Origin: a virus
Taxonomy: Duplodnaviria; Caudoviricetes
IMG/VR virus record: IMGVR_UViG_3300005512_000001
Span: 96,001-160,000 of that record
Strand: one strand, 5' to 3'
DNA length: 64,000 bases
Shown: one piece after another, positions 2,056 to 50,018 of the stretch
Layout: each line of letters opens with the position of its first letter
Numbering within the stretch: the stretch's first letter is position 1
Notes under the pieces: model-generated
What the model was told of the DNA's origin: nothing
The model's input: the letters and a program-made list of their open reading frames with translations, nothing else
The model's database searches: none
Made by a program: the position numbers and the translations under genes

Positions 2056-2445
2056 CTATTCTACTCTACGCGAGGATTTCCTCACGTGGACGACGGCAGA
2101 ATTCCCTAGTAGCTCTTCCATCTGGTCAGAGAATGACAGCACGAATTCTCCGACTTTGCTACCCTCATCTTGGTTGTTTGGTGGGAATGCAGAGGAACAT
2201 TTCCCGGCTTTGGCACGCCCCAGAGCGATCTGCCTACCTAGCTTCTTATTGAAATGGTCCTTCTTATGGCAAGCAGACCATCCAATATCTATGAAATTGT
2301 CCTCATCCACAATCGCTACGGCACAAGCGATAGGTGCCCAAGTATTAACGTCTCTCAGGTACCGGGTGAAGATTCGCGGCTTGGGGTCTTCATCTGAAGA
2401 CTTCTCCACATCCACACTCACGACCTTCGACATTACTTTTTCCAT
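2056..2445 (-). CDS. phage hypothetical protein
   Basis: AAGGA RBS; G.S.C...D.F.K..GR.IA..RA pattern seen in small phage proteins. Confidence 0.6.
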   Translation of the reverse strand: MEKVMSKVVSVDVEKSSDEDPKPRIFTRYLRDVNTWAPIACAVAIVDEDNFIDIGWSACHKKDHFNKKLGRQIALGRAKAGKCSSAFPPNNQDEGSKVGEFVLSFSDQMEELLGNSAVVHVRKSSRRVE

Positions 2446-2456
2446 CTCTGCTTCCT

Positions 2457-2591
2457 TTCAAAGTTCCAAGACTCTAACGTTAGGCTCAGGTTTATTGTGT
2501 GTTTTTGGTTTGCGATAGACAATTCTATGCTTCCTATCGCAATATTTTATAGCCACATTTCAGGCACCATTCCCCATTCCCCATTCCCCAT
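2457..2591 (-). pseudogene. frameshifted paralog of ORF 2592-2852
   Basis: MGNGEWCLKCG in one frame and AIKYCDRKHRIVYRKPKTHNKPEPNVRVLEL* in another; neighbour has EWCQKCG...RVLEL. Confidence 0.45.
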
Positions 2592-2852
2592 TTATGCTTG
2601 CATCTCTAGCTCTAACACCCTCGCATTGGAAGGTATTTTCTTTTTGGGTTTCCTCTTAACCTTTTTCTTTTTCAATCTTCGATATTGGGTGTCATAATAC
2701 CCACCCATCCAGTACTCACCCCTCCTGGTTCTCAAAGTACCGCATTTCTGGCACCATTCAACTGTCCGCCTAATGTGGAATCCCTCATCCAGTCGGGAAT
2801 CGCTCCCCCCACCTATCACAGTTATAAATGACCAAGTATGCCTACATCTCAT
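2592..2852 (-). CDS. small basic Zn-finger protein
   Basis: CRH...CQKC, Lys-rich tail, RVLEL near the C-terminus. Confidence 0.6.
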   Translation of the reverse strand: MRCRHTWSFITVIGGGSDSRLDEGFHIRRTVEWCQKCGTLRTRRGEYWMGGYYDTQYRRLKKKKVKRKPKKKIPSNARVLELEMQA

Positions 2853-3088
2853 AATTCTAATACCCGAGGTTTTGGCTTTTTAATCTTGATTTTTAGTTTG
2901 GGTTTACGTTTGGGCTTACGTTTGGGCTTACGTTTGGGCTTACGTTTGGGCTTACGTTTGGGCTTACGTTTGGGCTTTACAGGTTTTACCTTGTAGTACC
3001 GATAATAGTAATGGTCGTAGGCAGGGGTATGTGGTCTACATAACTCTCGTATAGCCCCCACAGTTCTTACACCAATCCCATGCATCAC
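2849..3088 (-). CDS. small basic protein with (KRKP)n repeat
   Basis: ORF overlaps the next by 4 nt and ends RVLEL. Confidence 0.5.
   Translation of the reverse strand: MMHGIGVRTVGAIRELCRPHTPAYDHYYYRYYKVKPVKPKRKPKRKPKRKPKRKPKRKPKRKPKLKIKIKKPKPRVLEL
2897..2977. repeat. 12-bp tandem repeat TTTGGGCTTACG, about 6.7 copies (coding KRKP)
   Basis: seen directly. Confidence 0.95.
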
Positions 3089-3228
3089 CTATATGGTCCC
3101 ACTCGTGAGAGCATCTTTTTGTCTTTTTCTTTATTGCCATTTATGTTCAATCCGTAGAAGCCCAATAGCCAACCGAACTTCTTTAATGTGATGTTGATGC
3201 GGGCAGGACAACTGTGGGATTGGGGCAG

Positions 3229-3546
3229 TTATAATATTTTGAATCTGTCACAATACGATTGCCACCAATAATTGTTGACATTATCATTTTTAATTGTCAA
3301 TTCTACATCGGGCGGGCATCTTTGTCCTGTTATCATTGCATGGTGTCTGGCCCAAATTGGCGATTTATAAAGTATAGGTTTCAAAAGGTCCATGTTGTTC
3401 TGAAACATCCCGCTTTCCACATAAGCAAGTTCAGCTAGAGACATTGCCGTAACGTCATCTTTCCCATCGTCAATGATAACGTCACTGCTATATATCGGCG
3501 TGGTACTTCGTTGTATAATAGTGACGTTAGAACAAGTTAGCAACAA
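3229..3546 (-). CDS. hypothetical protein
   Basis: 105-aa ORF, start uncertain. Confidence 0.4.
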   Translation of the reverse strand: MLLTCSNVTIIQRSTTPIYSSDVIIDDGKDDVTAMSLAELAYVESGMFQNNMDLLKPILYKSPIWARHHAMITGQRCPPDVELTIKNDNVNNYWWQSYCDRFKIL

Positions 3547-3736
3547 TTACATGTTTTATGTCGGGGGACTTTTGCGTAAATAATTGGATTTAATATATTT
3601 TAGAATATATATTTATCCCGCCCTCGCTCTAGCGAAAATACTTTTTCTCGCGTGAGAAGTATCATTTGGAACATTCTGAATTGCTCTCGTAACGCTCCTG
3701 AGGCACTATTCAAAAATCCACAAGCTAGGCCCTAGT

Positions 3737-4326: not shown

Positions 4327-4580
4327 TATGGGAATTGGGTATTTTTCTGGGAGTGCGCGAGCTCTCCCGCCGAGCATAACTCCTAATTGGGGGGCTAATT
4401 AGGGTGCAAGCCAACCTCAGACTATAGATTTAACTAGAAAGGTATACCACGGCTTGGGAGGGAAATAGGTATTTGGAAATTGACATATACGGTGATTAGA
4501 CTGGGAAGTTATTGACTCATATCCTACTGGGGAGGGAGTGACATGCACCCTGCTTAGCAAAAATAACTCAGGAGTTAAAA

Positions 4581-4808
4581 ATGGATATAAACGAAATTTT
4601 GAATTGGGTAAGGCAGAGATTGAGAGATGAGCCAGAAATGCACAGCCATGATGAGAGAATGATTTCTCTCGGGAGGCAGGAAGCATTCAATGAAGTTTAT
4701 AGTTATTTGGGCAAGATTTCCGATTCTCTAGTGCCAAGTCCTGAAGAGCAGGTAGATGATGACTGGGTAAGTATCGACGACGTTGGCCAAATCGCCGACC
4801 AGATGTAA
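4581..4808 (+). CDS. acidic hypothetical protein
   Basis: AGGAG RBS; converges on the hairpin at 4816. Confidence 0.65.
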   Translation: MDINEILNWVRQRLRDEPEMHSHDERMISLGRQEAFNEVYSYLGKISDSLVPSPEEQVDDDWVSIDDVGQIADQM

Positions 4809-4815
4809 ATACAGC

Positions 4816-4849
4816 GAGAGGGGACTCCTAATTAAAGGAGTCCCCTCTC
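4816..4849. terminator. GC hairpin between convergent genes, probable bidirectional terminator
   Basis: GAGAGGGGACTCCT-loop-AGGAGTCCCCTCTC. Confidence 0.75.
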
Positions 4850-4874
4850 TTCCTACCGGGGGGTCAGGCCGTCG

Positions 4875-5228
4875 TCAGGCCGTCGCCAGTTCCTCGGCAT
4901 CCCGGACTTCCTCACCGTCCGCGTCGATGAGCTGGAGGCATTCCCAGTCATCCACGTGGCCTTCGGCGTACCCGGCCTTGGTCCAGGACTTCCACTTGGG
5001 GGAGTCGGGGGCCGGGAGCGGGTGCGTCATGCACTCGGCGTCGAAGTTCCGGCCCAGATTCCCACCGTACACGTTGGCCGACGTGAAGGTGTTTTCCTGG
5101 TCATTGACGATCAAGAGGGTGTTTGCCGGGGTTCCGAAATCGTGATCCATCGGCTTCACGAAGACCCGAGTTGCCTGAATGGGCTTCCCACCCAGACCGT
5201 ACAGCTTGCGAAGTTGCTTACTCGTCAT
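4875..5228 (-). CDS. early protein, paralog A
   Basis: GGGAG RBS; shares MDHDFGT, QENTFTSANVYG and DAECMTHPLPAPDS.KWK.WTK.GY with 9820-10263. Confidence 0.8.
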   Translation of the reverse strand: MTSKQLRKLYGLGGKPIQATRVFVKPMDHDFGTPANTLLIVNDQENTFTSANVYGGNLGRNFDAECMTHPLPAPDSPKWKSWTKAGYAEGHVDDWECLQLIDADGEEVRDAEELATA

Positions 5229-5778
5229 GTCAAATACTCCCATAATGGAGGAATCGTCGCGGGCAAGCCTCTCTCGCCCGACACTTTCCGTGTCGCGGCG
5301 TGCGTTGCCGGTCAACTGGGTATTTGGAAATGGGAATTTCCCGTCTGGAAATTCCAAATTGACATGCACGCTACTTAGGGTAGATGAGAATTTCCTGTAC
5401 CCTGCTTAGCCGGAGAATCCTAGTTGCCTCCGCCGCCCCGACGCGACACAAAAAGCGGCGACGGAACACGATGGGACGCTGGGCTTGCACCCCTGACGCC
5501 CCGACCAAGCACCCCCACCAATAGATTATGGCAAGATGGTCGTTGGTGGGTCGGATTAAGCAGGTGTGAGGTTAGCAATCTCGGGTTGGGTTTGACCAAT
5601 AGCCTGCGGAGCGGGCGGGGCTCCTAAGGGACAATTCGAATTGCTCAATTTAAATTCTTTTTTCGTACAGGATAAAGGAATATAGTATGAAAGAAAGAAT
5701 ACCGCCCTAGGGCGTGGTCAGAGAGTAGGCCGAAGAGCCAATATTATGGAGTACCGAGTGTAAAGCAGTGTGAAGTAT

Positions 5779-5808
5779 AGAGGGCCGGGTGATATCACCC
5801 GGCCCTCT
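5779..5808. terminator. 30-bp perfect palindrome/hairpin
   Basis: AGAGGGCCGGGTGATATCACCCGGCCCTCT; related hairpin at 8489-8515. Confidence 0.6.
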
Positions 5809-6173
5809 TAGATTATCCAAGCAGGGCGTAAGTCAATACATCTCCCTATGGATTAGAGTGCGAGATATTTATTGACTTACACCCTGCTTGGTGGGCAGTC
5901 AGGGAAATTTACATCTACGCTGATTAGGTGGGATTTTCTCGTACCCTACTTGGATAAGGGGTCTAGGACGCAAATGGAGAACTCCGGTCCTATGCTCATT
6001 CATTCAAGAATAAAAACAGCAAGGAAAAAGAGGGAAAGCCATCAAGCTCCTTCATTACAGGCTGTACTAAGCACATAACTCTTTTTCACCAAAGCCCTAC
6101 TAACGGGGCTTTCGGGAATATAAACCCTTCTTTGCTGTTTTATTCTAGACAATCAGTGGCCTATTACTAGCTC

Positions 6174-6476
6174 TTAGCTAGTCATATAGCTGTTTTTTTG
6201 GCAGCGATTGCAAATCCCATTGCACTGCTCCCCAACGGTCTGCAGCAGATCGCCGCAATCTATGCAGACCACAACTGGAGCATCCTCGAATTTGGGCTTC
6301 TCGACGTGAGGTGAGTAGATCGAGATGGAGGCCGGATCGCCCATGCAGACTTCTTGGACAATCTCTAGCTCCATGGCTGCTTGGTCCTCGGCAGTGATTC
6401 CGGCAACCATTTCTCCATTCTCATCGAACCAGACTTCAACACCGTTTGCAAATTTCAACTTGATGTAACGCATCAA
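6174..6476 (-). CDS. hypothetical protein with C-terminal CxxC..CxxC
   Basis: CIDC...CNRC; GAGG RBS. Confidence 0.65.
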   Translation of the reverse strand: MMRYIKLKFANGVEVWFDENGEMVAGITAEDQAAMELEIVQEVCMGDPASISIYSPHVEKPKFEDAPVVVCIDCGDLLQTVGEQCNGICNRCQKNSYMTS

Positions 6477-6691
6477 AGCACCTCGGTCTCGATTTTCACG
6501 AGGTGGCCGCCATTTTGCCAGAACTCGGTGAGTTCATTGACCTTGCGACAGCCGCCTGGGTCTTGTGTGTCATACATCTGCGAGAGTCGGGCTTTCCGTT
6601 TTGCCAGCCATTCATCCAACTCCTCGGCTCGTATGGCCGCGATGATGGAGTCGGCATCTCCCTCGATGTGCCGGATAATGATGATTTTCAT
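6473..6691 (-). CDS. hypothetical early protein
   Basis: GGAG RBS just downstream of the 6737-6765 promoter motif. Confidence 0.65.
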   Translation of the reverse strand: MKIIIIRHIEGDADSIIAAIRAEELDEWLAKRKARLSQMYDTQDPGGCRKVNELTEFWQNGGHLVKIETEVL

Positions 6692-6789
6692 GTGTTTCTC
6701 CAGAGGTTGGGGCTTATCCGTGTTCCGTCGCCGCTTTTTGTGTCGCGTCGGGGCGGCGGAGGCAACTAGGGTACATTCTCATCTGATTC

Positions 6790-7095
6790 CTACTGTGACT
6801 GGACCAGTTCCGGGTCATGGAGTGCCATTGCCGAATCGATGCTCTCGGCTTGGCATACCCACACATCGCCATTGTCCCGGAATTGCAGGATGTTGAGGTA
6901 TGCGGGGGCCATCGCCGGAGTTACCACTTTGGCGAGGGTCAATGACCCACCGGGGATGTTGCCACCCTTGTACCGAAGTTCCTTGGTAGTGACGGCCAAT
7001 TTCCAGCCGTCCAGATAGTCAGGCCCGTATTGTGGGTACTGCTCGTGGGCCTTGTTGAATTGGTCCACTAGCATTTGCTTGATTGTTGAGTTCAT
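6790..7095 (-). CDS. hypothetical early protein
   Basis: GAGGAG RBS; 4-nt overlap with the upstream gene. Confidence 0.65.
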   Translation of the reverse strand: MNSTIKQMLVDQFNKAHEQYPQYGPDYLDGWKLAVTTKELRYKGGNIPGGSLTLAKVVTPAMAPAYLNILQFRDNGDVWVCQAESIDSAMALHDPELVQSQ

Positions 7096-7370
7096 TGCCC
7101 TAGGTTCTCCTCGACGTCCATGTAGTAGACCCAACCCGCAAAGTCCTCGCCTTCGACTACCTCTGCGACCTCGATGCAGGCATAGGTGCCATACCCTTCA
7201 ATCTCCCCAGCGATGATGATTGGAGATTCCACGGCTATATCCGGATCACACCCGTAACGACCGGCCTTCAACCTCAGCCGGTCGCCTTCTTTGATTGCCG
7301 CATTGTGGGGTCGCGAGGGGTTATGTTCCTCTCGCCACTGTTCCAAAAAATCCGGTTGGTTCCAGTTCAT
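7092..7370 (-). CDS. hypothetical early protein
   Basis: GAGGA RBS; tightly packed operon. Confidence 0.65.
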   Translation of the reverse strand: MNWNQPDFLEQWREEHNPSRPHNAAIKEGDRLRLKAGRYGCDPDIAVESPIIIAGEIEGYGTYACIEVAEVVEGEDFAGWVYYMDVEENLGQ

Positions 7371-7373
7371 TGG

Positions 7374-7643
7374 TCAGTCCTCGCAGGTGCTCACCACTTT
7401 GTGGACCCGGAAGTTCGGGGTGGCCAGAATGTCTTCCATCAGCATGTTGACCATCCGCATGACTCCCCGCCCGTACTTAACCCCGACTGCCGGGTGGAAA
7501 TGGCAGGTCTCGGCAACGACCTCAACGTGCCCAATCCGCCTGTTGTTGTCATGCCCATCCCCGAGGTACACGTTGTGGACTTTGTCGCGGTGGTGAACGT
7601 CACTTGGACGTCGCACAGCGATAACTTCGACTTGGCTTTTCAT
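7374..7643 (-). CDS. hypothetical early protein
   Basis: GGGAG RBS. Confidence 0.65.
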   Translation of the reverse strand: MKSQVEVIAVRRPSDVHHRDKVHNVYLGDGHDNNRRIGHVEVVAETCHFHPAVGVKYGRGVMRMVNMLMEDILATPNFRVHKVVSTCED

Positions 7644-7714
7644 CGACTTGCTCCCAAAGAAGTGTTGTTCTCGCCCATCTCCTGGTGTCGCAGAGGTGCT
7701 CGCACGTCAACTGC

Positions 7715-7900
7715 CTACTTGTACGTGCAGAACTTCCCACTTTGGAGTGCCATATCTTGGCCGGGTCGGTCCAGTTCGGCGATGTGGAATCCCTCATTCA
7801 ATCTGGAATCGAAACTGCGAGGGAGTTTCAGGTATTTGGCAGTGCAGAACGGGCAAAATTCCTCGTCGTGGTCGCGTCCGCATACTTCGCAGGTCTCCAT
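7715..7900 (-). CDS. small zinc-finger protein
   Basis: CEVC...CPFC; GGGAG RBS after a promoter motif. Confidence 0.6.
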   Translation of the reverse strand: METCEVCGRDHDEEFCPFCTAKYLKLPRSFDSRLNEGFHIAELDRPGQDMALQSGKFCTYK

Positions 7901-7978
7901 CCTTGAATCTCCCAATAGTCGCCAAAGAAATGCTTCTCGCCACCTTTTGGTGTGACGCGCCGCCGCAGCGGACAACTC

Positions 7979-8341
7979 CTAAGTTGGCTTCGGTAGGGCA
8001 GCCATCCATTTACTGCCCTGCGGGGACCAATAAATACCAGTCCCGTTCGCTCCGCAGCCGATATGAAGATAAATCATATCTTCATACTCCCCGCCGAGGA
8101 TGAAACTCCCGAGTTTCTCGCCATCCGGCATATTGGGCCGACGGTGGGATCGGAATCCCAAACATTCCAACTCGAATTTCGTCAGTTCGGCCATCTTTCC
8201 ATCGAGCATCCGGAACATTCGCACGATCGGCCCGTCGATGGGGATGATGGGTTTGACGCCGAGAAGATTGAAAGTCTCGGCAAGATGGCGTCTCCAGTCG
8301 TCAGCAACATACATCCCCGGCAGTTCTTTGGTCTTCGACAT
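7979..8341 (-). CDS. hypothetical early protein
   Basis: GGGAG RBS downstream of the 8393-8421 promoter motif. Confidence 0.65.
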   Translation of the reverse strand: MSKTKELPGMYVADDWRRHLAETFNLLGVKPIIPIDGPIVRMFRMLDGKMAELTKFELECLGFRSHRRPNMPDGEKLGSFILGGEYEDMIYLHIGCGANGTGIYWSPQGSKWMAALPKPT

Positions 8342-8487
8342 TTCGAGTCTCCCAACTGGAAATAGAGAAAGGGCACAACCGCCCGCCAAAAAATGGTGTT
8401 GCGCTGGCAGGCCGAGGTCAACTGGGTATTTGGAAATTGACATCTACGGTGATTAGGTGGTTTTCTCGTGCCCTACTTGGATAGACC

Positions 8488-8712
8488 GGAGGGCCGGGTG
8501 GTATTCCCGGCCCTCCTCGCAATTGCACTGTATCACCAACGGATGGAGCTATTCCTGGACTCTTGGATTCTCCGCTGTTGTTGGCCTAACCTTGCCGAAT
8601 GAGTCCTGCCGGTGCAAGATTAAGGGTTGGCCAGACTAATCCCAGTGCCTCCGGCTAATTCTAGGCAGGTCCTAACCGTAGCCGTATGGCTCGGTGGCCT
8701 GCCGCCGTCGCT
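8488..8712 (-). ncRNA. candidate small RNA (~225 nt)
   Basis: promoter motif at 8717-8745, terminal GC hairpin at 8489-8515, no ORF of 60 aa or more on this strand, several internal stems. Confidence 0.4.
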
Positions 8713-8753
8713 AGTTGTTGTGTCGCGCCCGCCTGTCGAGGGCAACTACCCAA

Positions 8754-8939
8754 TCAGTTGCCCCTCAGATTATTCAGGGCGTCGATGTTGGCCTTGGTGG
8801 CCTTGATTTCGGGTTTCAGCGTCGGCCACACTTTCCCAATAATCTGTTTGGCCAACTGCCCCATGATTACCAGCCCGGTAATCCAAACTGCTGAATTACC
8901 AAGGACCTTGGCGAGTTCGATAAGTTCGGTATCCATCAC
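8754..8939 (-). CDS. small membrane protein
   Basis: AGGAG RBS with GTG start; one hydrophobic helix. Confidence 0.6.
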   Translation of the reverse strand: MMDTELIELAKVLGNSAVWITGLVIMGQLAKQIIGKVWPTLKPEIKATKANIDALNNLRGN

Positions 8940-8976
8940 TTGCTCCTAGAAAGGTCTGTTCCTCGTCGCCTTATAG

Positions 8977-9054
8977 TGGCGCAGAGCTGCGGCCACGCCA
9001 ATTACCCATTTCCCTCTGGCGCAGAGCTGCGGCCACGCCAATTACCCATTTCCC
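8977..9054. repeat. 38-bp tandem duplication (8977-9014 / 9017-9054) of a promoter -35/spacer segment
   Basis: seen directly. Confidence 0.9.
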
Positions 9055-9194
9055 CTAAGCAGGGCACAAGAAATCCCTAATCTAATTAGCGTGTGGATAA
9101 ATAAAAAGGGAGGGGTTACCTCCCTTTGTGGTCCGTAATATGCTCTGTAAGAGTGGGGGGCTGCCTTCTACCGCATGATGCACCTCGTTCCAGT

Positions 9195-9302
9195 CTAGTG
9201 CTTTGTGGCGTTGTTATATCCAACCCAAATGGCAAATCCTGCCAACCAGGTGGTGAAGAGCCATTTCCAGAGTTCCAGGATTTGGTCGCAAGGAATTGCC
9301 AT
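9195..9302 (-). CDS. 35-aa membrane peptide
   Basis: TGATG coupling to the upstream gene; MAIPCDQILELWKWLFTTWLAGFAIWVGY. Confidence 0.5.
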   Translation of the reverse strand: MAIPCDQILELWKWLFTTWLAGFAIWVGYNNATKH

Positions 9303-9559
9303 CAGACCGGAACCTTGAGGCTGAGCCGGATAATCATCCCGGAAACCGTATCGCCGATATTCGTCTCTTTCGGTTCGGTGTGCCAAGACGGAGAACTGCC
9401 ACTCACGCCATGCGGCATATGGAAATTCTCGATGTGCCGGAATGTCACGTAGTCGTTGTACCCGTCGCAATGGTTGGTGGCCATCACGATATCGCCGGTC
9501 TGAACTCCCAACTTCTTGAGTTCACCTATTACGGCGTCGTAGAATTCACCCGGTTTCAT
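9302..9559 (-). CDS. hypothetical early protein
   Basis: GAGGAG RBS; ATGA overlap. Confidence 0.65.
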   Translation of the reverse strand: MKPGEFYDAVIGELKKLGVQTGDIVMATNHCDGYNDYVTFRHIENFHMPHGVSGSSPSWHTEPKETNIGDTVSGMIIRLSLKVPV

Positions 9560-9777
9560 TTGAGAATCTCCTCGGCAAGCCGTCTTTGACGGATTTGCTG
9601 CTCGGGGGTTAGGATGCTCGGACCGTAGAGTTGCTCATCGATTGCCCGCAATTGCTCCCGTTCAGAGTCAGTCAGAACCTCTTTCGCGGCCAATGCCCGT
9701 TTTTGGTCTAGTAGTTCCATAAAGGAGATGCCCGGATTCGAACCGGGCGATTGTACTTGCTGTACCCGTATCTCCAT
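9556..9777 (-). CDS. hypothetical protein (start may be 9720)
   Basis: helical ORF; 5' part overlaps the tRNA-like element. Confidence 0.5.
   Translation of the reverse strand: MEIRVQQVQSPGSNPGISFMELLDQKRALAAKEVLTDSEREQLRAIDEQLYGPSILTPEQQIRQRRLAEEILK
9723..9775 (-). other. tRNA-like minihelix (acceptor stem plus canonical T-arm, no D or anticodon arm)
   Basis: GGAGATA-N21-CCCGG TTCGAAT CCGGG-CATCTCC-T. Confidence 0.45.
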
Positions 9778-9782
9778 GAGAC

Positions 9783-9811
9783 GGGGGGAGTCCCATTTCG
9801 GGACTCCCCCC
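9783..9811 (-). terminator. hairpin downstream of paralog B
   Basis: GGGGGGAGTCCC-loop-GGGACTCCCCCC; GGAGTCCC/GGGACTCC core shared with the 4816 hairpin. Confidence 0.7.
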
Positions 9812-9819
9812 TTTGGCCG

Positions 9820-10263
9820 CTAGGCCGTGGCGGTCTCGGCTTCCTCGACCGGGGCATCGGCGTCGTCCGGTTCGGGGTCGGTGGTGTCGGCGGCGATCGA
9901 CTCCAGGACGATGAAGTCGGAGACCTTACCGGGCGCGTAGCCCTTCTTGGTCCACGCCTTCCACTTGTCGGAGTCGGGGGCCGGGAGCGGGTGCGTCATG
10001 CACTCGGCGTCGTAGCCCTTGCCGAGTCGCTGTTCGTCGCCCGAACCGTAGACGTTGGCCGACGTGAAGGTGTTCTCCTGGCGGTTGATCGCCAAGATGG
10101 ACACGGCGGCAGTGCCGAAATCGTGGTCCATGCCCTTGACCAGCACTTCGGAGGCCGGGATGGGCTTCCCGAGGATGCCAAACCGCTTGCGGGCTTGGGC
10201 CTTCGAGAGGCTGGGGGTCTCGGGGATTTCGACGGTCTCGGTCTTCGCGTTCTTCCTCGGCAT
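9820..10263 (-). CDS. early protein, paralog B
   Basis: AGGAG RBS, two promoter motifs upstream, very high GC3; paralog of 4875-5228. Confidence 0.85.
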   Translation of the reverse strand: MPRKNAKTETVEIPETPSLSKAQARKRFGILGKPIPASEVLVKGMDHDFGTAAVSILAINRQENTFTSANVYGSGDEQRLGKGYDAECMTHPLPAPDSDKWKAWTKKGYAPGKVSDFIVLESIAADTTDPEPDDADAPVEEAETATA

Positions 10264-10381
10264 GGTTGAATCTCCTATATCGTCAACCGTGTTATCAAAG
10301 GGGCGGCGTTCGCCCCGCATCTCTTTGTGTCGCACCGTTCGCTGCCGGTCAATTGCCAGTGAAGGTCGTCGTTGTCTCCAA

Positions 10382-11073
10382 TTCCCGACAAAAAGTGGTG
10401 TTGCGCCAGCCGGTCGCGGTCAATTGGGTGGTTGGTGGGACAACTGGGTATTTAGATCGGTGCCCCAGTGGCCTTGAACTCGGCCCAGAATTCATCACTC
10501 CACTCCTCGTATTCAACTACCGAATCATCGGCGTTGATGACTGCCTCCGCGAGATCTGAGGCGTCGAGGAAGTCGTAAAGGTCTCGCCTGTTAACGCCAT
10601 CCTCACCAGCGTGGAGGATATCGAGTTTGCCATTCTCCACCCCGCAATACGCCCATCCGGGACCAAATCCAACCCATACATCGATCGGAATCATGGCTCT
10701 GGCATCATCCTCTTGGGGTGATTTCACCCATCCGAAGTTGCTGACTCGGAATTTCCCCCCATCGGCTCGGATCAGGACGTTGGGGAATGCCGGTCGGCTA
10801 TGTCCCATGTACAACTTGTCGCCATTGTCGAATTCCACATAGGCATAACATTCATGGCCTCGTACTTTTGTCGCTTTCATCCCAATCTCCTAGAAGTGGT
10901 GGTCTTTCGCTCGGTTTTATAGTGTCGCGCCAGCTCACGCCGGCCAATTGGGTATTTCCCACCTAACTACGAGCTGCCCCGTCCTCAGTTAACGTCGCCT
11001 TATCCGTTCGTGAACCACCCCAAATGCCCTTCCCGACAAAAAGTGGTGTTGCGCCAGCCGGTCGCGGTCAATT
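10382..11073. repeat. identical 44-bp direct repeats (10382-10425, 11030-11073) flanking one gene cassette
   Basis: TTCCCGACAAAAAGTGGTGTTGCGCCAGCCGGTCGCGGTCAATT twice. Confidence 0.92.
10452..10880 (-). CDS. hypothetical early protein
   Basis: AGGAG RBS, own promoter motif at 10919-10947. Confidence 0.75.
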   Translation of the reverse strand: MKATKVRGHECYAYVEFDNGDKLYMGHSRPAFPNVLIRADGGKFRVSNFGWVKSPQEDDARAMIPIDVWVGFGPGWAYCGVENGKLDILHAGEDGVNRRDLYDFLDASDLAEAVINADDSVVEYEEWSDEFWAEFKATGAPI

Positions 11074-11224
11074 ACTTGGACCCTGCTTAGGGGAAGGAAT
11101 ACATGGGTATATGGGTAACTATGGGGGAATACATGGGTATTCCTCGGGTAGTACATTAAGTGTTTTTCCGACGCGTAATATATTTCCGCGTGAAGGGTTT
11201 GGATATTTGTTATCCAGTATTTTT

Positions 11225-11265
11225 AGCGTCAGCGTCAGCGTCAGCGTCAGCGTCAGCGTCAGCGT
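11225..11265. repeat. hexamer microsatellite (AGCGTC)6+
   Basis: seen directly. Confidence 0.95.
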
Positions 11266-11498
11266 TGGAAACGATGGAAACGACGAGGGTCCACTGGGTC
11301 CACCCGCCATATGACATACATTAGAATCATTGCGATTAACCCACCAGACCCAGCAAAGCAAAGTTGCAATGCCATAAATGTATCACTAGAATCCCACGGC
11401 ATGTCCTCATACCAAGACACACGAAGATATAGCATCATATTAATAGCGGCGACCGAACCACTAAACCATGCTATGCAGATGGCTATCAGTATGGACAA
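11259..11498 (-). CDS. small two-TM membrane protein
   Basis: two hydrophobic segments. Confidence 0.5.
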   Translation of the reverse strand: MSILIAICIAWFSGSVAAINMMLYLRVSWYEDMPWDSSDTFMALQLCFAGSGGLIAMILMYVIWRVDPVDPRRFHRFQR

Positions 11499-11554
11499 CG
11501 TTGGTTCCCCTCGTCGTTTCCATCGTTTCCGTCGTTTCCATCGTTTCCATCGTT
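11267..11554. repeat. 23-bp inverted repeat (11267-11289 / 11508-11530) built from GGAAACGAT 9-mers
   Basis: GGAAACGATGGAAACGACGAGGG and its reverse complement; extra 9-mers to 11554. Confidence 0.85.
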
Positions 11555-42977: not shown

Positions 42978-45900
42978 TCATTCTATCAAACACGCACCGC
43001 CTGCACAAGCCTTCTCAGAACGCAGTGTTGTGTTGTCGTCTTCTTCCCTAAATTTCGTCCAGTCGATTGATTGGCTATTATTAATTAAATTCTGCCAGAT
43101 AGTTTTATCTGATTCTGTCTTAACCTCTTCCCTTGGTGCGTTAACATATTCTTTATCGCCTGTGTCTGGCAACATTGATACGCCGCTGAAGAATTTACGG
43201 TGCCGCCATAGGAATTCTTTTACATCATCCCATTCATCTTGCTTTACAGTAATGGTGTTAGAAACATTATGTGTCACACCAGGTGACGAATTTGGTTTTG
43301 CAGTTCCAGGAATAACCCAATTACGCTGGGTCATTAATACCTTTTCTAAGAATTCAATCGCTGTTAGGTCATGCCTAGTAATAGCATTTTCAGGTGCTTT
43401 GATAGGGAATGTGATTAGGTCTTTCCTGGCATCAACTGAAATGCACATATGTGGGTTCTTATTTTTAAAATGTTTATAGACTGGGCAGTCTGGGTTGGCA
43501 CGCACTCTCCTGAAATATTTCTCTGCATGATGAGTATGAATGCCACTACCAACTGCACCTAATACAATAGATGCAGAACCGCTTGGCTTAATACATGTGA
43601 CTCTGGCTGCGGTGTTAATTCCGATTCTATTTGCAATATCAATATTGGTTTCGACTGCTACCTGTGCAGCGTTTCTCTGGATTTCCGGATTTAGTGCGAT
43701 ATCAGGATTATCCATAACGCCGGTCATCGATACACCAAGTAGTGCCTCTTTATTGCAAACTGCTTCACTTACCCATCCAAGATATTTAAAATCAGTATAG
43801 CCAGCTTGAGCTGTGCCGATAATCGCAGCAGCCTTTACACGCTCATATAGCTCTTGTTCGTTATCAACATCAGATACATTTACTTCTGTTAGGTTGCACA
43901 TCTGCCATCCCCAATGGGTGGCATTTACTTTCAGGTTTGGGAGTTTGCGGTTAGTTGATGCTGCCCACTTGCTGAGGGACATCTTCAATTCTGGTGTGAT
44001 GGTCAACTTCGGATTCATCCCGATTTCTACACAATTATGAACATACAACCCATTAGCGTCAAAAGCAGATGGGCCTGGCACCGTACAATCATACACTGGA
44101 TGAATACCTATATGATCTATTGATTTGATGGTGTCATATATATTATCAGACCAAAAGTTATTGTCTTTAATCTCTTCTAATTTTTTGGCTTTTTGTGCGT
44201 TGCTAAACCCAACCTGTGACGCGAACCTTTTAATCGATTTACCAGATATGATTAAATCATGCGTCGCTGCACAAATTACTTTTTTATATCCACCATGACC
44301 ATTAGGCATTGGAATGCGACGTTCTGCATGCCTTTCTTTAGCAATATTAGATTTTATGCCAAAATAACTTAATATGAGTTGTACTTTTTTTAGGTTATCT
44401 AGTTGATTAGAACACAATCTAATACTATATCTTCCTTTAGACGCGATAGTAACAGTTCCATCTGCATCAAAATATCCAGTCAGAAACCCTCTTAATAACG
44501 ATTTGGATGACTTCAATAATTGATCAGATATATGCTTACCACCACCCTTTAAATTTAAATCTCTGAATAGATGATATGAAACTGCTAAATTATATAATTT
44601 TTTGCTTTCTGATTGCACATAAGGATTTGCAATAATTGCTTTACTAAATTTTTCTCTACTATAATTCGGATGATTTTCGGAATTAAGTCCAGATTTTTGT
44701 AAAATATCATTGGCAAATACCCTATCTTGATATTTATCATCACCCCAAAATTTTATTTGTGCTGAATTGCCACGTGCTCTTTTAACAATATTTCCATCAC
44801 CAATAAACCATCCCAATACCAGCCCCTTGCCCCATTCTTTTTCATCTGAATATTGGTTTGATGCAGAATGGCTACTATGATCATGCAATTTGATGTTGTC
44901 ACCAACCATCAAATTTCCAACAGATTGCCACCCATTATTAGTCATGACTTTGTGATTAGCAGTAATATCAATATGTCGGCCACTTTTCATCTCAACACGT
45001 AACACTTGTTTTGATCCTGTTGGGAAGAACCCATTAGATTTGAACTTTTTACCGTCAACTACTGCTTTAAATGGCACGTCAAGTAGGTCACATACTTGTT
45101 TTAATCCATCATCGGTGCTAACCCAAGTATCGCCAGTAACACATGGGTTTGCGCCGGTATCTTCATCATCTGTAAAATAAAATCCTGGCTCGCCCCATTG
45201 CTCTGTGGCTTTAAAGATTCGACAGAATTGTCTTTTCTTGATGTCTTTGCGATGCAAAACGACAGAATTATTTGCTCTAGCACGCCATGGATGTGTACTA
45301 TACCAGTTGCCAGTTTTTGAATTCATCATCTCACCATCATCTAGTGAGAATAAACAAATCATTGCTGCTTCTCTGATTCCGCCAGCATAAACGGCGTTAG
45401 CTAGCATACACATAATATCATAACATTCGATTGGTTTTAGTTGTCTACCTTGAGCATTTTCAAGCACCTTTCTGACATTGTTTAATGACGACTTCAATGG
45501 CAGATGCCCAGGTGCTCTTCCACCTGACGTTTTGAGTAATGCACCTTGTGGCCTGATTTTGTTGTATGCGAATTCAACATATACTCCTGTACGTAAGTAT
45601 GACCTAATAAGCTCATGGGCAGCGTCGGCCCATCCTTCTATAGTATCAGGTACTATATGGTGAATAACGTTTTTCTTGTCAATAAACTTGACAGGTTCTA
45701 GCTGGTCAATGTGCTGGAATTGGACTGAAAATCCAACGCCTGTTCCACTAAGTAGAAGCCAGAATGCTTCTGAGAATGCACGCGCCCTGTTTATAATAGA
45801 AAAGCTACAGTTATAACCTTTAGCATTATTTGCCTCCATCGCTGGGCCGCCAAACTGCATAGACCTCATTGATGGTAAGACTTGCTTCGCCCGCACTTTA

Positions 45901-46373
45901 TTAAACGCCCATTCCAATTCTTTTGTGATAGAAGGATATCTATCTATATGCATTTGCTCTACACGGTCGACTATTTCTGGGAAAATTTCCCGTCGATTGA
46001 GTTCTGGTTTAAAACGTGAGTATCGCGTCATAGTTACATAATCGGCCATCATTTCAGTGTTTGGCTCTATGCGTAATTTAGCTTGCCTATCACTAAAGAG
46101 GATGAAAGCTTCTGCTACCTCATGGTATTGGTAATCCATTAACTTGCGTTTGACAATACCAGTAATAACATCGGTAGCGATTACACCATTATCAGCGGTA
46201 ATAGCAGCCTCATTGATGATAGATTCGATCAGATTTTCAAATTTACCATTTATGTCATGGCCGGTTTCTGCCGCTGACCTTTTAATCCCATACTCAATTT
46301 TAGACTTGTCAAAATCGACTAATGAACCATCACGTTTTGACACCTTTGGTGTAGTTGCAACAGAAGTGGGCAT
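42978..46373 (-). CDS. nrdJ: class II (B12-dependent) ribonucleotide reductase with N-terminal ATP cone and intein
   Basis: KRDGS...FD..KI; PSMRSMQFGG, YNCS, GVGFS, GEPG, NP|CVEI, CNLTE, TCIKPSG, C-terminal CAGGAC. Confidence 0.88.
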   Translation of the reverse strand: MPTSVATTPKVSKRDGSLVDFDKSKIEYGIKRSAAETGHDINGKFENLIESIINEAAITADNGVIATDVITGIVKRKLMDYQYHEVAEAFILFSDRQAKLRIEPNTEMMADYVTMTRYSRFKPELNRREIFPEIVDRVEQMHIDRYPSITKELEWAFNKVRAKQVLPSMRSMQFGGPAMEANNAKGYNCSFSIINRARAFSEAFWLLLSGTGVGFSVQFQHIDQLEPVKFIDKKNVIHHIVPDTIEGWADAAHELIRSYLRTGVYVEFAYNKIRPQGALLKTSGGRAPGHLPLKSSLNNVRKVLENAQGRQLKPIECYDIMCMLANAVYAGGIREAAMICLFSLDDGEMMNSKTGNWYSTHPWRARANNSVVLHRKDIKKRQFCRIFKATEQWGEPGFYFTDDEDTGANPCVTGDTWVSTDDGLKQVCDLLDVPFKAVVDGKKFKSNGFFPTGSKQVLRVEMKSGRHIDITANHKVMTNNGWQSVGNLMVGDNIKLHDHSSHSASNQYSDEKEWGKGLVLGWFIGDGNIVKRARGNSAQIKFWGDDKYQDRVFANDILQKSGLNSENHPNYSREKFSKAIIANPYVQSESKKLYNLAVSYHLFRDLNLKGGGKHISDQLLKSSKSLLRGFLTGYFDADGTVTIASKGRYSIRLCSNQLDNLKKVQLILSYFGIKSNIAKERHAERRIPMPNGHGGYKKVICAATHDLIISGKSIKRFASQVGFSNAQKAKKLEEIKDNNFWSDNIYDTIKSIDHIGIHPVYDCTVPGPSAFDANGLYVHNCVEIGMNPKLTITPELKMSLSKWAASTNRKLPNLKVNATHWGWQMCNLTEVNVSDVDNEQELYERVKAAAIIGTAQAGYTDFKYLGWVSEAVCNKEALLGVSMTGVMDNPDIALNPEIQRNAAQVAVETNIDIANRIGINTAARVTCIKPSGSASIVLGAVGSGIHTHHAEKYFRRVRANPDCPVYKHFKNKNPHMCISVDARKDLITFPIKAPENAITRHDLTAIEFLEKVLMTQRNWVIPGTAKPNSSPGVTHNVSNTITVKQDEWDDVKEFLWRHRKFFSGVSMLPDTGDKEYVNAPREEVKTESDKTIWQNLINNSQSIDWTKFREEDDNTTLRSEKACAGGACLIE
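44034..45143 (-). mobile_element. 370-aa intein with LAGLIDADG endonuclease, inserted at the RNR NPC active site
   Basis: CVTGDT...ITANH...LGWFIGDG...FLTGYFDADG...VYDCTVPG...VHN|C. Confidence 0.95.
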
Positions 46374-46590: not shown

Positions 46591-46884
46591 ATGAATAATT
46601 GCCCTGAACCTGTAAGTGGGGCTGTGCCACAAGATAGCCCACTTACTATTATTACTACTAAGATTAAACAGGCTAATTTATTTTCTATAGAATTAATAAA
46701 GCAAGCAGAATCTATATTACAAGTTCTCGATCGTAAGCTGCTTGGCAATCAAGCAACTGACGACGATTGTAAAGACAATCTTAAATCGATTGATGAAGAA
46801 TATATTATGCCGTATTTATGTGATACAGAAGCAAATCTTGGAAAGCTAGAAGCAATAATAATAAAGATAGCAGCACTAATCTAA
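46591..46884 (+). CDS. hypothetical helical protein
   Basis: GAGGA RBS; GTATTTAA upstream. Confidence 0.55.
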   Translation: MNNCPEPVSGAVPQDSPLTIITTKIKQANLFSIELIKQAESILQVLDRKLLGNQATDDDCKDNLKSIDEEYIMPYLCDTEANLGKLEAIIIKIAALI

Positions 46885-46914
46885 AGCAAAACTAAGACGC
46901 GCAAAATAGCAAAA

Positions 46915-46983
46915 CAATTACGAAACTCAGCAATTACGAAACTCAGCAATTACGAAACTCAGCAATTACGAAACTCAGCAATT
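46915..46983. repeat. 16-bp perfect tandem repeat CAATTACGAAACTCAG x4.3
   Basis: seen directly; intergenic; no spacers. Confidence 0.95.
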
Positions 46984-46984
46984 T

Positions 46985-47371
46985 GTTCGCAGCAGAAGTG
47001 TTAAAAGGCCACGATCGGCATAAAGACAGCTCGCCGTCCAGAAGATGGCAGCGGTGAAATCCAATGATGATAGAGTGCCCGGTGGCCTCTTTTTACCAGG
47101 TAAAAGCCACCATAAAGAAGCGCAGGATCCCCTGGCCGACCAGAACCGTTAGGTTGGTGCAACGGGCCTATCGTTGGTTAGTACCCTAAGGATTAGAAAT
47201 TAGGCTCTACTAAGGAGCTGGAGAGAATCCGGCTGTAACCGAAAGTTCTTAAGTTGGCCACACTTAAAGGGTGAGGTGCGCTGGTACGGTATGGCCCCTC
47301 AGCCTGTGGTGGGTAGTTCACTATACTTAGAATATCCTTTCTTTTCTTTGTGAAACCTACCCCTGCGCAAC
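46985..47371 (+). ncRNA. ~390-nt structured non-coding element, family unassigned
   Basis: GC-richer ORF-free island with about 7 local stems, several needing G-U pairs on the plus strand, plus long-range GCGCAGG/CCTGCGC. Confidence 0.6.
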
Positions 47372-47462
47372 TAAAGGAGACCTGACTATTCTGATTGTAT
47401 TTAATGTTGGGAAAGATTACTAAAGCATTAAAGCATTAAAGAACTCAATAATCGGAGATACG

Positions 47463-48137
47463 ATGAGAGTACCAATTCGTGATGCGGATAGGTTCTTTGT
47501 TGAACTTGATGAGATAGAAAAAATACACTCATACAATATTGATATTAGAAATAGGGAAATATTCATATCTGGGGAGGATGGGCTTGACCCAGATATAGAG
47601 CCTGGCGTTAATTATATTATGTCTGCTAGGTTGATACGTAATCTCCGAATATTAGTTAATCGCAGTAATAAGCCAATATTAATTCATATGAAAACATGTG
47701 GGGGCAGTTGGAACGAGGGGATGGCCATGTATGATGCAATCAAATCATGTCCAACCCATGTTACTATATTGAACTATACTCACGCACGTAGTATGAGTTC
47801 ATTGATATTGCAAGCTGCAGACAGACGAGTTATGATGCCACATTCTGAATTTATGTTTCATCATGGGACATATAGCGATGACGGCGAGATGGTAACTGTT
47901 ATGTCCAACTTAGATTGGTACCGGCGCACAATAGATGTTATGTGCGGCATCTATGTTGATGTTATGAAGGAAACTCCAGGCAGTAAATGGGTAAAGGTTT
48001 CAAAAGATAAGATTAGGCAATGGCTGGATGAGCAGATGGAAAAGAAAAATGATGTATTTATGTCTGCCGAAGATGCTGTGTGCAATGGGTTTGCTGATGC
48101 GGTATTCGACAATGATTGGGGAAAGTTAGTTGGATGA
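47463..48137 (+). CDS. clpP: ClpP-family serine protease
   Basis: REIFISG, TCGGS...GMAMYD, ARSMSS, FMFH, FMSAEDA...GFAD. Confidence 0.88.
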   Translation: MRVPIRDADRFFVELDEIEKIHSYNIDIRNREIFISGEDGLDPDIEPGVNYIMSARLIRNLRILVNRSNKPILIHMKTCGGSWNEGMAMYDAIKSCPTHVTILNYTHARSMSSLILQAADRRVMMPHSEFMFHHGTYSDDGEMVTVMSNLDWYRRTIDVMCGIYVDVMKETPGSKWVKVSKDKIRQWLDEQMEKKNDVFMSAEDAVCNGFADAVFDNDWGKLVG

Positions 48138-48724
48138 TTGTTTCAAAGAAGCACAAGTTTGCTTTTGTACATATTCCGAAAACTGGTGGGACTTCTATTA
48201 CGTTGATGCTTAAGCCATATCTTGGTAGTGGGCCGACCCATGGCCGAGGGTGGCAAAAGGCATATCATAAATATGAATTACATTCCCCATTAATGCCATT
48301 TAATCATATGGGTAATTATTTTAAATTCGCATTTGTTAGAAATCCGTGGGATTGGCTGGTCTCGTTATATCATACTGGTGCGATTAATAGGATGATAGGC
48401 CGAGCTAAAAGGGCTAAAAAACCAGCATGGAATGAATTAATACGAATGATAAATGCTGGGGCTGTGTCAGTTAGATGCCAATCAACATGGCTCAAATGCC
48501 ATGCTGTGTCAGTTGATTATGTTGCAAGATTTGAACAATATGAAAAAGAAGTAGCATATATCTTTAACCGATTGGGACTTAAGTACAAAAATATACCACA
48601 TAGATTGAACAATGGAAGGAAGCGGCAACATTATACTGAATGGTATGATGCTAATAGCCGACGGGTGATTGGGCGGCTGTTTAAACATGATATAACTGCT
48701 TTTAAATATAAATTTGGGAAATAA
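48134..48724 (+). CDS. sulfotransferase family 2
   Basis: FVHIPKTGGTSI, FAFVRNPWDWLVSLY, VARFE. Confidence 0.88.
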   Translation: MIVSKKHKFAFVHIPKTGGTSITLMLKPYLGSGPTHGRGWQKAYHKYELHSPLMPFNHMGNYFKFAFVRNPWDWLVSLYHTGAINRMIGRAKRAKKPAWNELIRMINAGAVSVRCQSTWLKCHAVSVDYVARFEQYEKEVAYIFNRLGLKYKNIPHRLNNGRKRQHYTEWYDANSRRVIGRLFKHDITAFKYKFGK

Positions 48725-48732
48725 TAATAATA

Positions 48733-48951
48733 ATGTTACAATTATTAAAAAAATGGCTAAAGCGTGAGACTCATGTGTTTGTACATTTTGATGGCCCTAT
48801 AAATATAAATATTTCCGGCGAGTATACAAGTTCACAAAATGCAAGTATTTTAAAACAAGGTACGAACGCTGAAGATGATGTTCAGGTTGAGCCAGTATTA
48901 GGCAATATTGAGCTACCTGTGGCAGACTTCGGACAGAACATTAAAGGTTAG
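48733..48951 (+). CDS. hypothetical protein
   Basis: 72-aa ORF in operon. Confidence 0.55.
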   Translation: MLQLLKKWLKRETHVFVHFDGPININISGEYTSSQNASILKQGTNAEDDVQVEPVLGNIELPVADFGQNIKG

Positions 48952-48953
48952 AT

Positions 48954-50018
48954 ATGGCCACTGAATACAATAGAATCGGATTAGACCTTGGGACCAAAAC
49001 CATTGTGTGTGCGATCAGGTCTGGTGATGGTAGACTTACATTTCGCAAAGAAATAAATGGATTTTTTGTGTTTCCTAAGAAAGATGCGTTCACTAGGAAT
49101 ATGTTAGTGAAGCAGAAGATTCCGTTTATAGAGCGAGATGGGAGATTTATTGCCCTCGGGTCTAGGGCGGAACAATTTGCGTATGCGATTAACTCGACAT
49201 TACGTAGGCCAATGGCTGAAGGCACTGTTAGTAGAGAACAAGAGGCCATAAATATTATGGCTTCGATTGTTCAAGCACTTATTGGCAAGCTTGAAAAAGA
49301 TACGATTTTATATTATTGCATCCCAGCAAACGCACTTAATAAACAGACGAATGTGCAATACCATGATAAGGTTGCTAGGTTGATATTTGATAGTTATAAG
49401 AGGTCCGAAGTCACAATTAATGCATACTCAATTAATGAGGCTAGGGCGATTGCAATTGGCAGTGACGAACCTTTAGCGGTTGCAATCTCTTGGGGCGCTG
49501 GCATGATTAATACATGCTATACGATGTTTGGTGTGCCGATATTTGAATTCTCGTTGGTGGGGTCAGGTGACTGGATTGATACTGAAGCTGCAAAGCAATT
49601 TGGTTACAATCCTGATAACCCAACTCAGAAATCTCAAGAAACTCCTACTAGTATTTGCCATCGGAAGCATGATATTGATTTGACAGTTCCTTTGAAAGAA
49701 GCTAATAGGGTTGACCAAGCAATAATGTTGCATTACCAGCTTCTGATTGAGAATGTCATTAATGGCATTATTAATGGATTTGAAAGCAACATCGATAAAG
49801 CCAGAATCGAGCAACCAGTTCCAATCATAATGGCTGGTGGCACAGCTTCACCTGTTGGCTTCAAGGAATACTTCACTCAAATCCTTAACAATCATACATT
49901 GCCGTTTGAGGTATCTGAAGTTAAATTGAGCCCAAAACCTTTGTTTGCAGTCGCAGAAGGCTGCCTTGTTGCCGCTGAGATGCATGAAGTTGAGGAATCA
50001 GAAGAGGCAGAAGGTTAG
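48954..50018 (+). CDS. actin-like ATPase (ParM/MreB/MamK fold)
   Basis: IGLDLGT, INEARA, ISWGAGMIN, GSGDWID, MAGGTA, AVAEG. Confidence 0.85.
   Translation: MATEYNRIGLDLGTKTIVCAIRSGDGRLTFRKEINGFFVFPKKDAFTRNMLVKQKIPFIERDGRFIALGSRAEQFAYAINSTLRRPMAEGTVSREQEAINIMASIVQALIGKLEKDTILYYCIPANALNKQTNVQYHDKVARLIFDSYKRSEVTINAYSINEARAIAIGSDEPLAVAISWGAGMINTCYTMFGVPIFEFSLVGSGDWIDTEAAKQFGYNPDNPTQKSQETPTSICHRKHDIDLTVPLKEANRVDQAIMLHYQLLIENVINGIINGFESNIDKARIEQPVPIIMAGGTASPVGFKEYFTQILNNHTLPFEVSEVKLSPKPLFAVAEGCLVAAEMHEVEESEEAEG

Follow-up and report, generated by a model that had tools for sequence, protein, structure and literature searches.

A pseudoknotted RNA encoded on the plus strand at 47025-47392 stands at the head of an actin- and glycan-related gene block in a T4-like jumbo phage, and it is very probably a real, conserved structured RNA. 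By sequence comparison it is an undescribed RNA family of such phages, conserved in at least five of them. The window, the whole 64,000-nucleotide stretch of DNA analysed here, spans bases 96001-160000 of a 341,434-bp record that has direct terminal repeats and encodes a T4-type major capsid protein. Relatives of this protein occur in at least 153 viral-contig stretches; the 80 that were kept are 73-90% identical, and several of the genomes measure 230-410 kb. The T4-type capsid protein, with its relatives in such large genomes, therefore places the record among T4-like jumbo phages. Literature searches on volactin, the family of the actin homologue, and on jumbo-phage noncoding RNA turned up no account of the element. 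The RNA would serve as a cis-acting 5' leader for the long, co-directional block of actin and glycan genes and would make the block's transcription or expression conditional, as the processive-antitermination leaders of polysaccharide operons do. Taken as a whole, this explanation, a new RNA family that is also the cis leader of the block, falls a little short of an even chance, a lower figure than for the RNA itself because it includes the mechanism.

The element occupies a non-coding island. GC content across 46950-47350 is 0.47-0.53, compared with 0.29-0.38 in the flanks, and no open frame exists between a 97-aa ORF at the left (46591-46884), for which no relatives were found in viral contigs, and the ClpP-like gene at the right. 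Stops interrupt all six frames and no ORF exceeds 53 aa, which confirms the ORF-free, GC-richer island described in an earlier note on this DNA. Alternative genetic codes were rejected as an explanation: every frame contains all three kinds of stop, and recoding any single stop opens no region-wide frame. Folded against shuffled sequences, the plus strand gives z = -2.73 (0/100 shuffles), and the minus strand, at z = -0.37, does no better than shuffles. ARAGORN found no tRNA or tmRNA in the 64-kb window. Elsewhere in the window, positions 4500-11500 form another GC-rich stretch (0.52-0.57 versus about 0.38), where both strands carry only short, overlapping ORFs and Pfam matches nothing; it holds a dispersed repeat family, GTGTYGCGC...GGTCAAYTGGGT, of 32-44 nt in at least seven copies, and two segments, of 92 and 147 nt, that are each duplicated at a distance of about 5 kb (85% and 70% identical).

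Homologues of the element occupy the same genomic place in other phages. The span 47025-47392 is supported by alignments A4 and A6, by a structure test and by the covariance model R2, and it is common to L182, L184, G003 (L115) and L192; with the phage of the window, G000, these make up the G000 type. L182, L184 and L192 were found through the contexts of close volactin homologues (79%, 73% and 60% identical to the window's protein, respectively). G003, whose major capsid protein is 80% identical, carries after its repeat arrays a region that shares blocks with the window element and folds at z = -3.09. Scanning viral contigs with a volactin alignment recovered G003, L192 and L193, while the same scan with a single volactin protein found nothing; scans for the core motifs GGATTAGAAANNAGGCTCT and GAGAGAATC..AACCGAAAG returned only G003 or chance matches. 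R2 finds a single copy each in G000, G003 and G081 (E 1e-29 to 1e-38) and also matches L182 and L184, these being the same five sequences from which it was built (G000, G003, G081/L192, L182 and L184). Window positions 47056-47216 score 158 bits against R2, and the other four training members 121-154 bits. The window contains each part that defines the type, namely helix P2 enclosing GAYAGAG-GCCCGG, hairpin H3, a variable hairpin and GGGCCU, followed by hairpin P3.

Covariation carries the case for an RNA. In the five-sequence core alignment A6, 96.1% of cells are paired, against 26-48% after a shift of the 3' partners by 1-3 columns, a control that is somewhat favourable because the structure, obtained from RNAalifold and inspection, derives from the same five sequences. 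Nineteen of the 32 pairs change on both sides, and 0/500 shuffles reach the covariation score; double changes this numerous in five sequences are hard to explain otherwise. Such covariation in homologues is what the earlier note had suggested looking for. G-U pairs, which occur in several helices here and also appear in a second family described below, fix the plus strand as that of the RNA.

All helices of the element are given on that strand. At the 5' end, hairpin P1 (47033..47049) pairs GCCGUC with GAUGGC (47033-38/47044-49) around a CAGAA loop and is compensated by eye in L182 and L184 in A4/A6. The main long-range helix, P2, joins CCAAUGAU at 47061..47068 to AUCGUUGG at 47170-47177, and 6/8 of its pairs change on both sides (n = 5). 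It supersedes an initial guess in which AUCC..UG paired with CAGGAU in G000. Next to its 5' strand lies the conserved core GAUAGAGUG-CCCGG (47069..47082), in which A47074, G47075 and G47077-C47080 pair with GGGCCU at 47164-47169 to form a helix invariant in 5/5 sequences; in the A6 structure test, the 3' strands of this helix and of P2 together occupy 47164..47177. Hairpin H3 (47081..47111) consists of GGUGGC/GCCACC (47081-86/47106-11) with an inner UUUUAC/GUAAAA (47091-96/47100-05), and 7/9 of its pairs change on both sides. The variable hairpin GCCGACC/GGUUGGU (47135..47158, strands 47135-41/47152-58) was traced by eye; all five sequences have a hairpin at this position, with a sequence that varies and cannot be aligned.

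Downstream of P2, hairpin P3 (47179..47212; UAGUA-C-CCUA ... UAGG-CUC-UACUA) combines 47179-83/47208-12 with 47185-88/47201-04 and shows changes on both sides in 6/9 pairs. Hairpin P4 follows at 47217..47233, with GCUGGA/UCCGGC (47217-22/47228-33) closing a GAGAA loop and the conserved AACCGAAAG after it; its equivalents are GAUCGA/UCGGUC in L182 and GACUGA/UCAGUC in L184. The 3' part (47311..47368) comprises a long hairpin, 47311-21/47350-62, and then CCUGCGC at 47362-47368, which pairs with the junction strand GCGCAGG at 47120..47126. At homologous places this last helix reads GCGGAG/CUCCGC in L182 and GCGCAAG/CUUGCGC in L184, and no counterpart was found in G003 or L192. It interleaves with P2 and therefore forms a pseudoknot. 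A conserved block, AGGAGACCUGACUAUU, then follows at 47375..47390 and recurs in L182, L184 and G003.

Several stems of this fold had been drawn from the single sequence. The stems of P1 and of H3 with its inner TTTTAC/GTAAAA were both in the earlier note and both survive comparison, as do its stem at 47249-54/47262-67, compensated by eye in L182, and the long 3' hairpin, which has an analogue in relatives, again by eye. The variable hairpin holds as a hairpin at a fixed place, not as a sequence. For the 3' end two alternative partners had been offered, and the pairing with 47120-26 is compensated in L182 and L184, while that with 46985-92 is unsupported. Two proposals fail: a CCGTT/AACGG pseudoknot is not conserved, and its AACGG overlaps the invariant GGGCCU strand; a GGATT/AATCC stem around GGCTC/GAGCT is likewise not conserved, and the covarying P3 and P4 take its place. 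P2 was absent from that list of stems.

No described RNA family accounts for the element. Rfam 15, whose 4227 families include ROOL, GOLLD, ARRPOF, RNase P, tmRNA, group I/II introns and the cobalamin riboswitch, gave no match to the whole window at gathering thresholds. With E values up to 10, positions 46800-47550 returned only a chance match to miR-1285, at 16.9 bits against a threshold of 56, and Rfam gave nothing relevant on ten loci of the second family. A cobalamin riboswitch, prompted by the class II reductase next door, was rejected: the strand is wrong and Rfam gives no match. When 50,697 phage records, its own genome and the records of 40 relatives were searched by BLASTN, the element gave chance matches only. 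The earlier note had offered an unclassified large phage RNA as one of its two readings. That reading is upheld by two covarying families, by G-U pairs on the plus strand and by the lack of any Rfam 15 match.

The second family occupies the equivalent position in other phages. In G004 and G012, a non-coding region lies upstream of an operon ending in a volactin fusion; the two regions are alike, and they share GAUAGAGUG..CGG and a hairpin with the window element. Of 43 loci returned by a pattern scan of metagenome contigs, about half were judged by eye to be chance matches in GC-rich coding DNA and set aside, and about 22 are true members, their sources being lakes, oceans and other sites. Members measure about 250-310 nt and place a GAUAGAGUG-CGG-hairpin core inside a long-range helix, with the GAUAGAGUG..CGG motif invariant throughout the family. 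The core modelled in R1 consists of AACUCGAA, helices H1 and H2 around GAUAGAGUG, H3, and an H4/H5 stem with UUCGA. In the 21-sequence core alignment A3, 96.1% of cells are paired against 35-50% when slid, and 26/32 pairs change on both sides, which 0/500 shuffles match.

This family also has a pseudoknot, in which the C-rich loop of a long stem pairs with a G-rich 3' tail, and both covary. Among its forms are CUCCACC/GGUGGAG and CCUUCCCC/GGGGAAGG, and L153 has one of 13 bp; pairs of a loop with its own tail score 8.0, compared with 5.8 for cross pairs (0/2000 permutations). Ahead of the last strand of this pseudoknot lies an AU-rich hairpin with a U-run. R1 matched 6/56 related phage records, including a member outside its training set, G006 (E 5e-9). 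Every downstream feature predicted for that locus is there: the AU-rich hairpin, a G-rich tail that matches the loop of the same RNA, then, after about 20 nt, a TATA-like box, and the conserved first gene. The first gene after the second-family RNA encodes a large protein with the conserved N-terminus P.NP..G.EV.D.YGN.W.Y. In G000 its homologue lies at both genome ends (bases 2292-3563 and 339951-341249) and not beside the RNA, and these end copies presumably lie inside the terminal repeat.

Cross-searches with R1 and R2 show that neither model detects the other family. Run with filters off, R1 matches just 15 nt of the window locally, at 47061-47075 (E 2.4), and has no significant hit in G003; because the models do not cross-detect, the window element is not filed under the second family. 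The two families nevertheless share an architecture: GAUAGAGUG, CGG and a hairpin lie inside a long-range helix that covaries, and a 3' tail pairs back into the core. In both, the RNA reads in the sense direction and heads a volactin-containing block, as the window element does. Among 56 records, three carry the G000 type only and six the second type only, and none has both types or two copies. A common origin of the two families would rest on this position, on one short motif and on mutual exclusivity.

Volactin lies downstream on the same strand, 0.25-23 kb away, in 9/9 element-bearing phage records checked. R1 and R2 found neither type in the volactin-bearing G010 (complete), G017, G019 and G082, three of these four being incomplete. 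Further candidates occupy the same slot: L183:3650-4283, L185:3672-4246 and L187:1-633 are long, GC-rich and apparently non-coding, and the last opens with AACAGCAA repeats. Both models detect nothing in these regions, where volactin is 70-74% identical. They may be further RNA classes, a hint that the genomic slot hosts a whole set of such RNAs. Separately, L186 encodes a reverse transcriptase (RVT_1) at 8620-9954, about 3 kb downstream of its volactin homologue.

The gene neighbourhood in the window follows this arrangement, with two unrelated genes inserted. To the left lies a divergent class II ribonucleotide reductase on the minus strand (42978..46373, by Pfam), which has an ATP-cone and an intein carrying a LAGLIDADG endonuclease domain. 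A class II reductase is also the left neighbour in L182, L183, L184 and L185, and the divergent ATP-cone reductase in L182 and L184 matches the window's arrangement exactly. To the right, the RNA heads a mostly plus-strand block that reaches the window end and contains ClpP, sulfotransferases, the actin pair and then further plus-strand genes. The ClpP-like protease and sulfotransferase genes (47463..48724, plus strand, by Pfam; ClpP-like gene 47463-48137) separate the RNA from the actin-like pair here, while in L182, L184 and G003 only 20-40 nt lie between the RNA end and the start of the small ORF. The closest ClpP relatives, 67-79% identical, follow portal or capsid genes in the manner of prohead proteases, and ClpP is missing from 4/5 related large genomes searched. 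In this phage the ClpP-like gene is, to judge by its relatives, an accessory passenger. ClpP-based synteny was discarded as a guide to homologues, as the nearest ClpP relatives lack such an upstream region. The actin pair itself (48733..50018, plus strand) consists of a 72-aa ORF and a volactin-like actin gene at 48954-50018, assigned by Pfam (PF25216, 1.7e-49) and conserved in relatives; in all relatives this pair is the syntenic companion of the RNA.

Immediately before the RNA lies a feature that had suggested different functions. Tandem Repeats Finder reports a 16-bp unit, CAATTACGAAACTCAG, in 4.3 copies at 46915..46983, 100% identical and set in an A-rich spacer, and a shorter repeat, TAAAGCAT, in 2.6 copies at 47421..47441 after the element; both had been noticed in the sequence, the former as four copies. 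The 16-bp unit is unique in the 341-kb genome, even with up to 2 mismatches. Across 27 loci of both RNA families, from about 20 distinct phages, arrays of at least 2.5 perfect copies precede only three (G000, G003 and G004), and their units are unrelated in sequence and length. In G003, a 737-nt gap upstream of a 73-aa ORF and volactin holds arrays of 8 bp in 8.4 copies and 16 bp in 2.8 copies, with units unrelated to the window's. The 354-kb contig of G004 opens inside a 9-bp array, ACCAGTTGA, of at least 13.6 copies, followed by an 8-bp unit in three copies (L117:1-150); its RNA element comes directly afterwards, and the repeat may be where the assembly broke. The upstream 350 nt are A-rich (41-43% A) in G000, L182, L184 and G003. 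The 16-bp repeats are, as the comparison of loci suggests, a lineage-specific expansion of this A-rich spacer, outside the conserved element, and may serve as lineage-specific protein-binding sites. Presence at 3/27 loci with unrelated units means that the repeats are not a conserved component, which argues against an essential iteron or centromere role.

The same repeats figure in the earlier note's other reading, a replication origin at which iterons bind an initiator and a structured transcript primes DNA synthesis. Perfect 16-bp direct repeats in an A-rich spacer at a divergent gene junction invite it, as do the arrays just upstream of the element in G003 and G004, and origins in T4 rely on an R-loop-forming transcript. 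Against this, arrays are absent from most loci, and selection acts on RNA helices and a pseudoknot that an R-loop primer would not need; conservation falls on RNA base pairing and not on a DNA site, and the origin or iteron reading is therefore unsupported. The expected skew signature is likewise missing. Cumulative GC skew climbs almost monotonically across 341 kb, from a minimum at base 4 to a maximum at base 341110, and the genome is G-rich on the plus strand almost everywhere, with dips at 100-135 kb that correspond to minus-strand gene blocks. The skew switch suspected near 47 kb thus exists as a local change; it tracks gene strand and is accompanied by no genome-wide inflection. No origin-type inflection appears at 143 kb of the genome, where the element lies, skew being a weak test in recombination-replicating phages. 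An origin is accordingly judged extremely unlikely.

A centromere-like role for the repeats, as distinct from the RNA, is also very unlikely. Here the repeats would be the site of actin-like filaments, bound by the small ORF product in the style of type II (ParMRC) systems. An actin-fold gene with a small upstream partner does lie 1.8 kb downstream, and repeat units that differ between phages and are perfect within each would suit a co-evolving pair of site and adaptor. However, most phages with the same actin pair lack the repeats, and L181 has the pair with neither repeats nor RNA element. The 72-aa product has no Pfam or PHROG match and no recognised DNA-binding motif, and in G004 more than 4 kb and several genes separate the array from the actin gene.

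A more serious alternative to the cis leader concerns the RNA itself, which could be a stand-alone, stable, trans-acting RNA with its own promoter, an RNP scaffold, ribozyme or decoy merely parked by the actin/glycan block. This is possible, though rather unlikely. At about 370 nt, with several covarying helices and a pseudoknot, the element resembles large phage ncRNAs of unknown function, and in this phage it was retained when two unrelated genes were inserted between it and the actin pair. The neighbouring genes also appear to have promoters of their own. Genome-wide, 68/190 copies of the heptamer AAATATA lie within 40 nt upstream of an ORF start, against 23/182 for a control heptamer; one copy, at window 48706-48712, precedes the 72-aa ORF. 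In the second family, a conserved TATA-like box stands about 20 nt past the last helix or G-rich tail of the RNA. Going by these positions, either motif may be a late promoter. If the TATA-like and AAATATA motifs are promoters, late mRNAs would start 3' of the RNA and would not contain it, which favours a separate trans-acting RNA. Also weighing against the leader explanation as a whole are a scan for sigma-70-like promoters and terminators that gave nothing above chance, the failure of either model to detect the other family, and the absence of the element from G010 and L181.

Other observations speak against a parked RNA. The strand always matches the block, the place at the block head is fixed, and this holds in two divergent families. 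In the second family the AU-rich hairpin with its U-run lies 5' of the final pseudoknot strand, and behind the element no terminator stands out. Nor is a conserved promoter visible by eye upstream. A broader proposal, that the two families form a new class of phage regulatory or catalytic RNA coupled to an actin-like cytoskeleton and a surface-glycan module, is offered as speculative and probably too far-reaching. Within such a class, one possibility is a large cis antiterminator or switch gating a block of more than 15 kb, and another is an RNA partner of the actin system.

Few large structured RNAs combine strong covariation with the lack of a known function, and every one of them has led to new biology. 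For both families there are now alignments, consensus structures, pseudoknots and working covariance models; their carriers are uncultured jumbo phages of the T4-like kind, found in lakes, seas and other habitats. The neighbourhood of an actin homologue and glycan enzymes offers a concrete experimental handle. In addition, a tempting but unsupported origin annotation is removed from the genome.

Comparison with known systems sets the element apart from those based on DNA repeats. RNA-primed and iteron origins are exemplified by ColE1 RNA II, by the R-loop origins ori(uvsY) and ori(34) of T4 and by plasmid iterons. The locus shares with them direct repeats beside a structured region at a divergent junction, yet its repeats are not conserved, the skew shows no inflection and no initiator gene was recognised nearby. 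In the ParMRC centromere, parC iterons act with ParR and ParM, and here too direct repeats lie upstream of a small gene and an actin-fold ATPase. Unlike in ParMRC, an RNA of about 370 nt and two genes separate the repeats from the actin pair in this phage, the repeats are missing in most relatives, and the actin belongs to the volactin family, not to ParM.

Among RNAs, GOLLD and ROOL are closer in form. Like them, the element is phage-borne, several hundred nucleotides long, multi-helix and pseudoknotted, is recognisable only by covariation, and stands out as a GC-rich island in an AT-rich genome. It differs in being smaller, in not lying beside tRNAs, in being tied to a single gene neighbourhood and in matching nothing in Rfam 15. 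For the proposed function, the nearest parallels are HK022 put and the EAR element of Bacillus eps operons, cis-acting leader RNAs of processive antitermination. The phage element is 2-3 times larger than these and, by Rfam, has no sequence relationship to them, so the likeness would be one of functional analogy: a structured, pseudoknotted RNA, on the sense strand, that heads a long block rich in glycan-synthesis genes.
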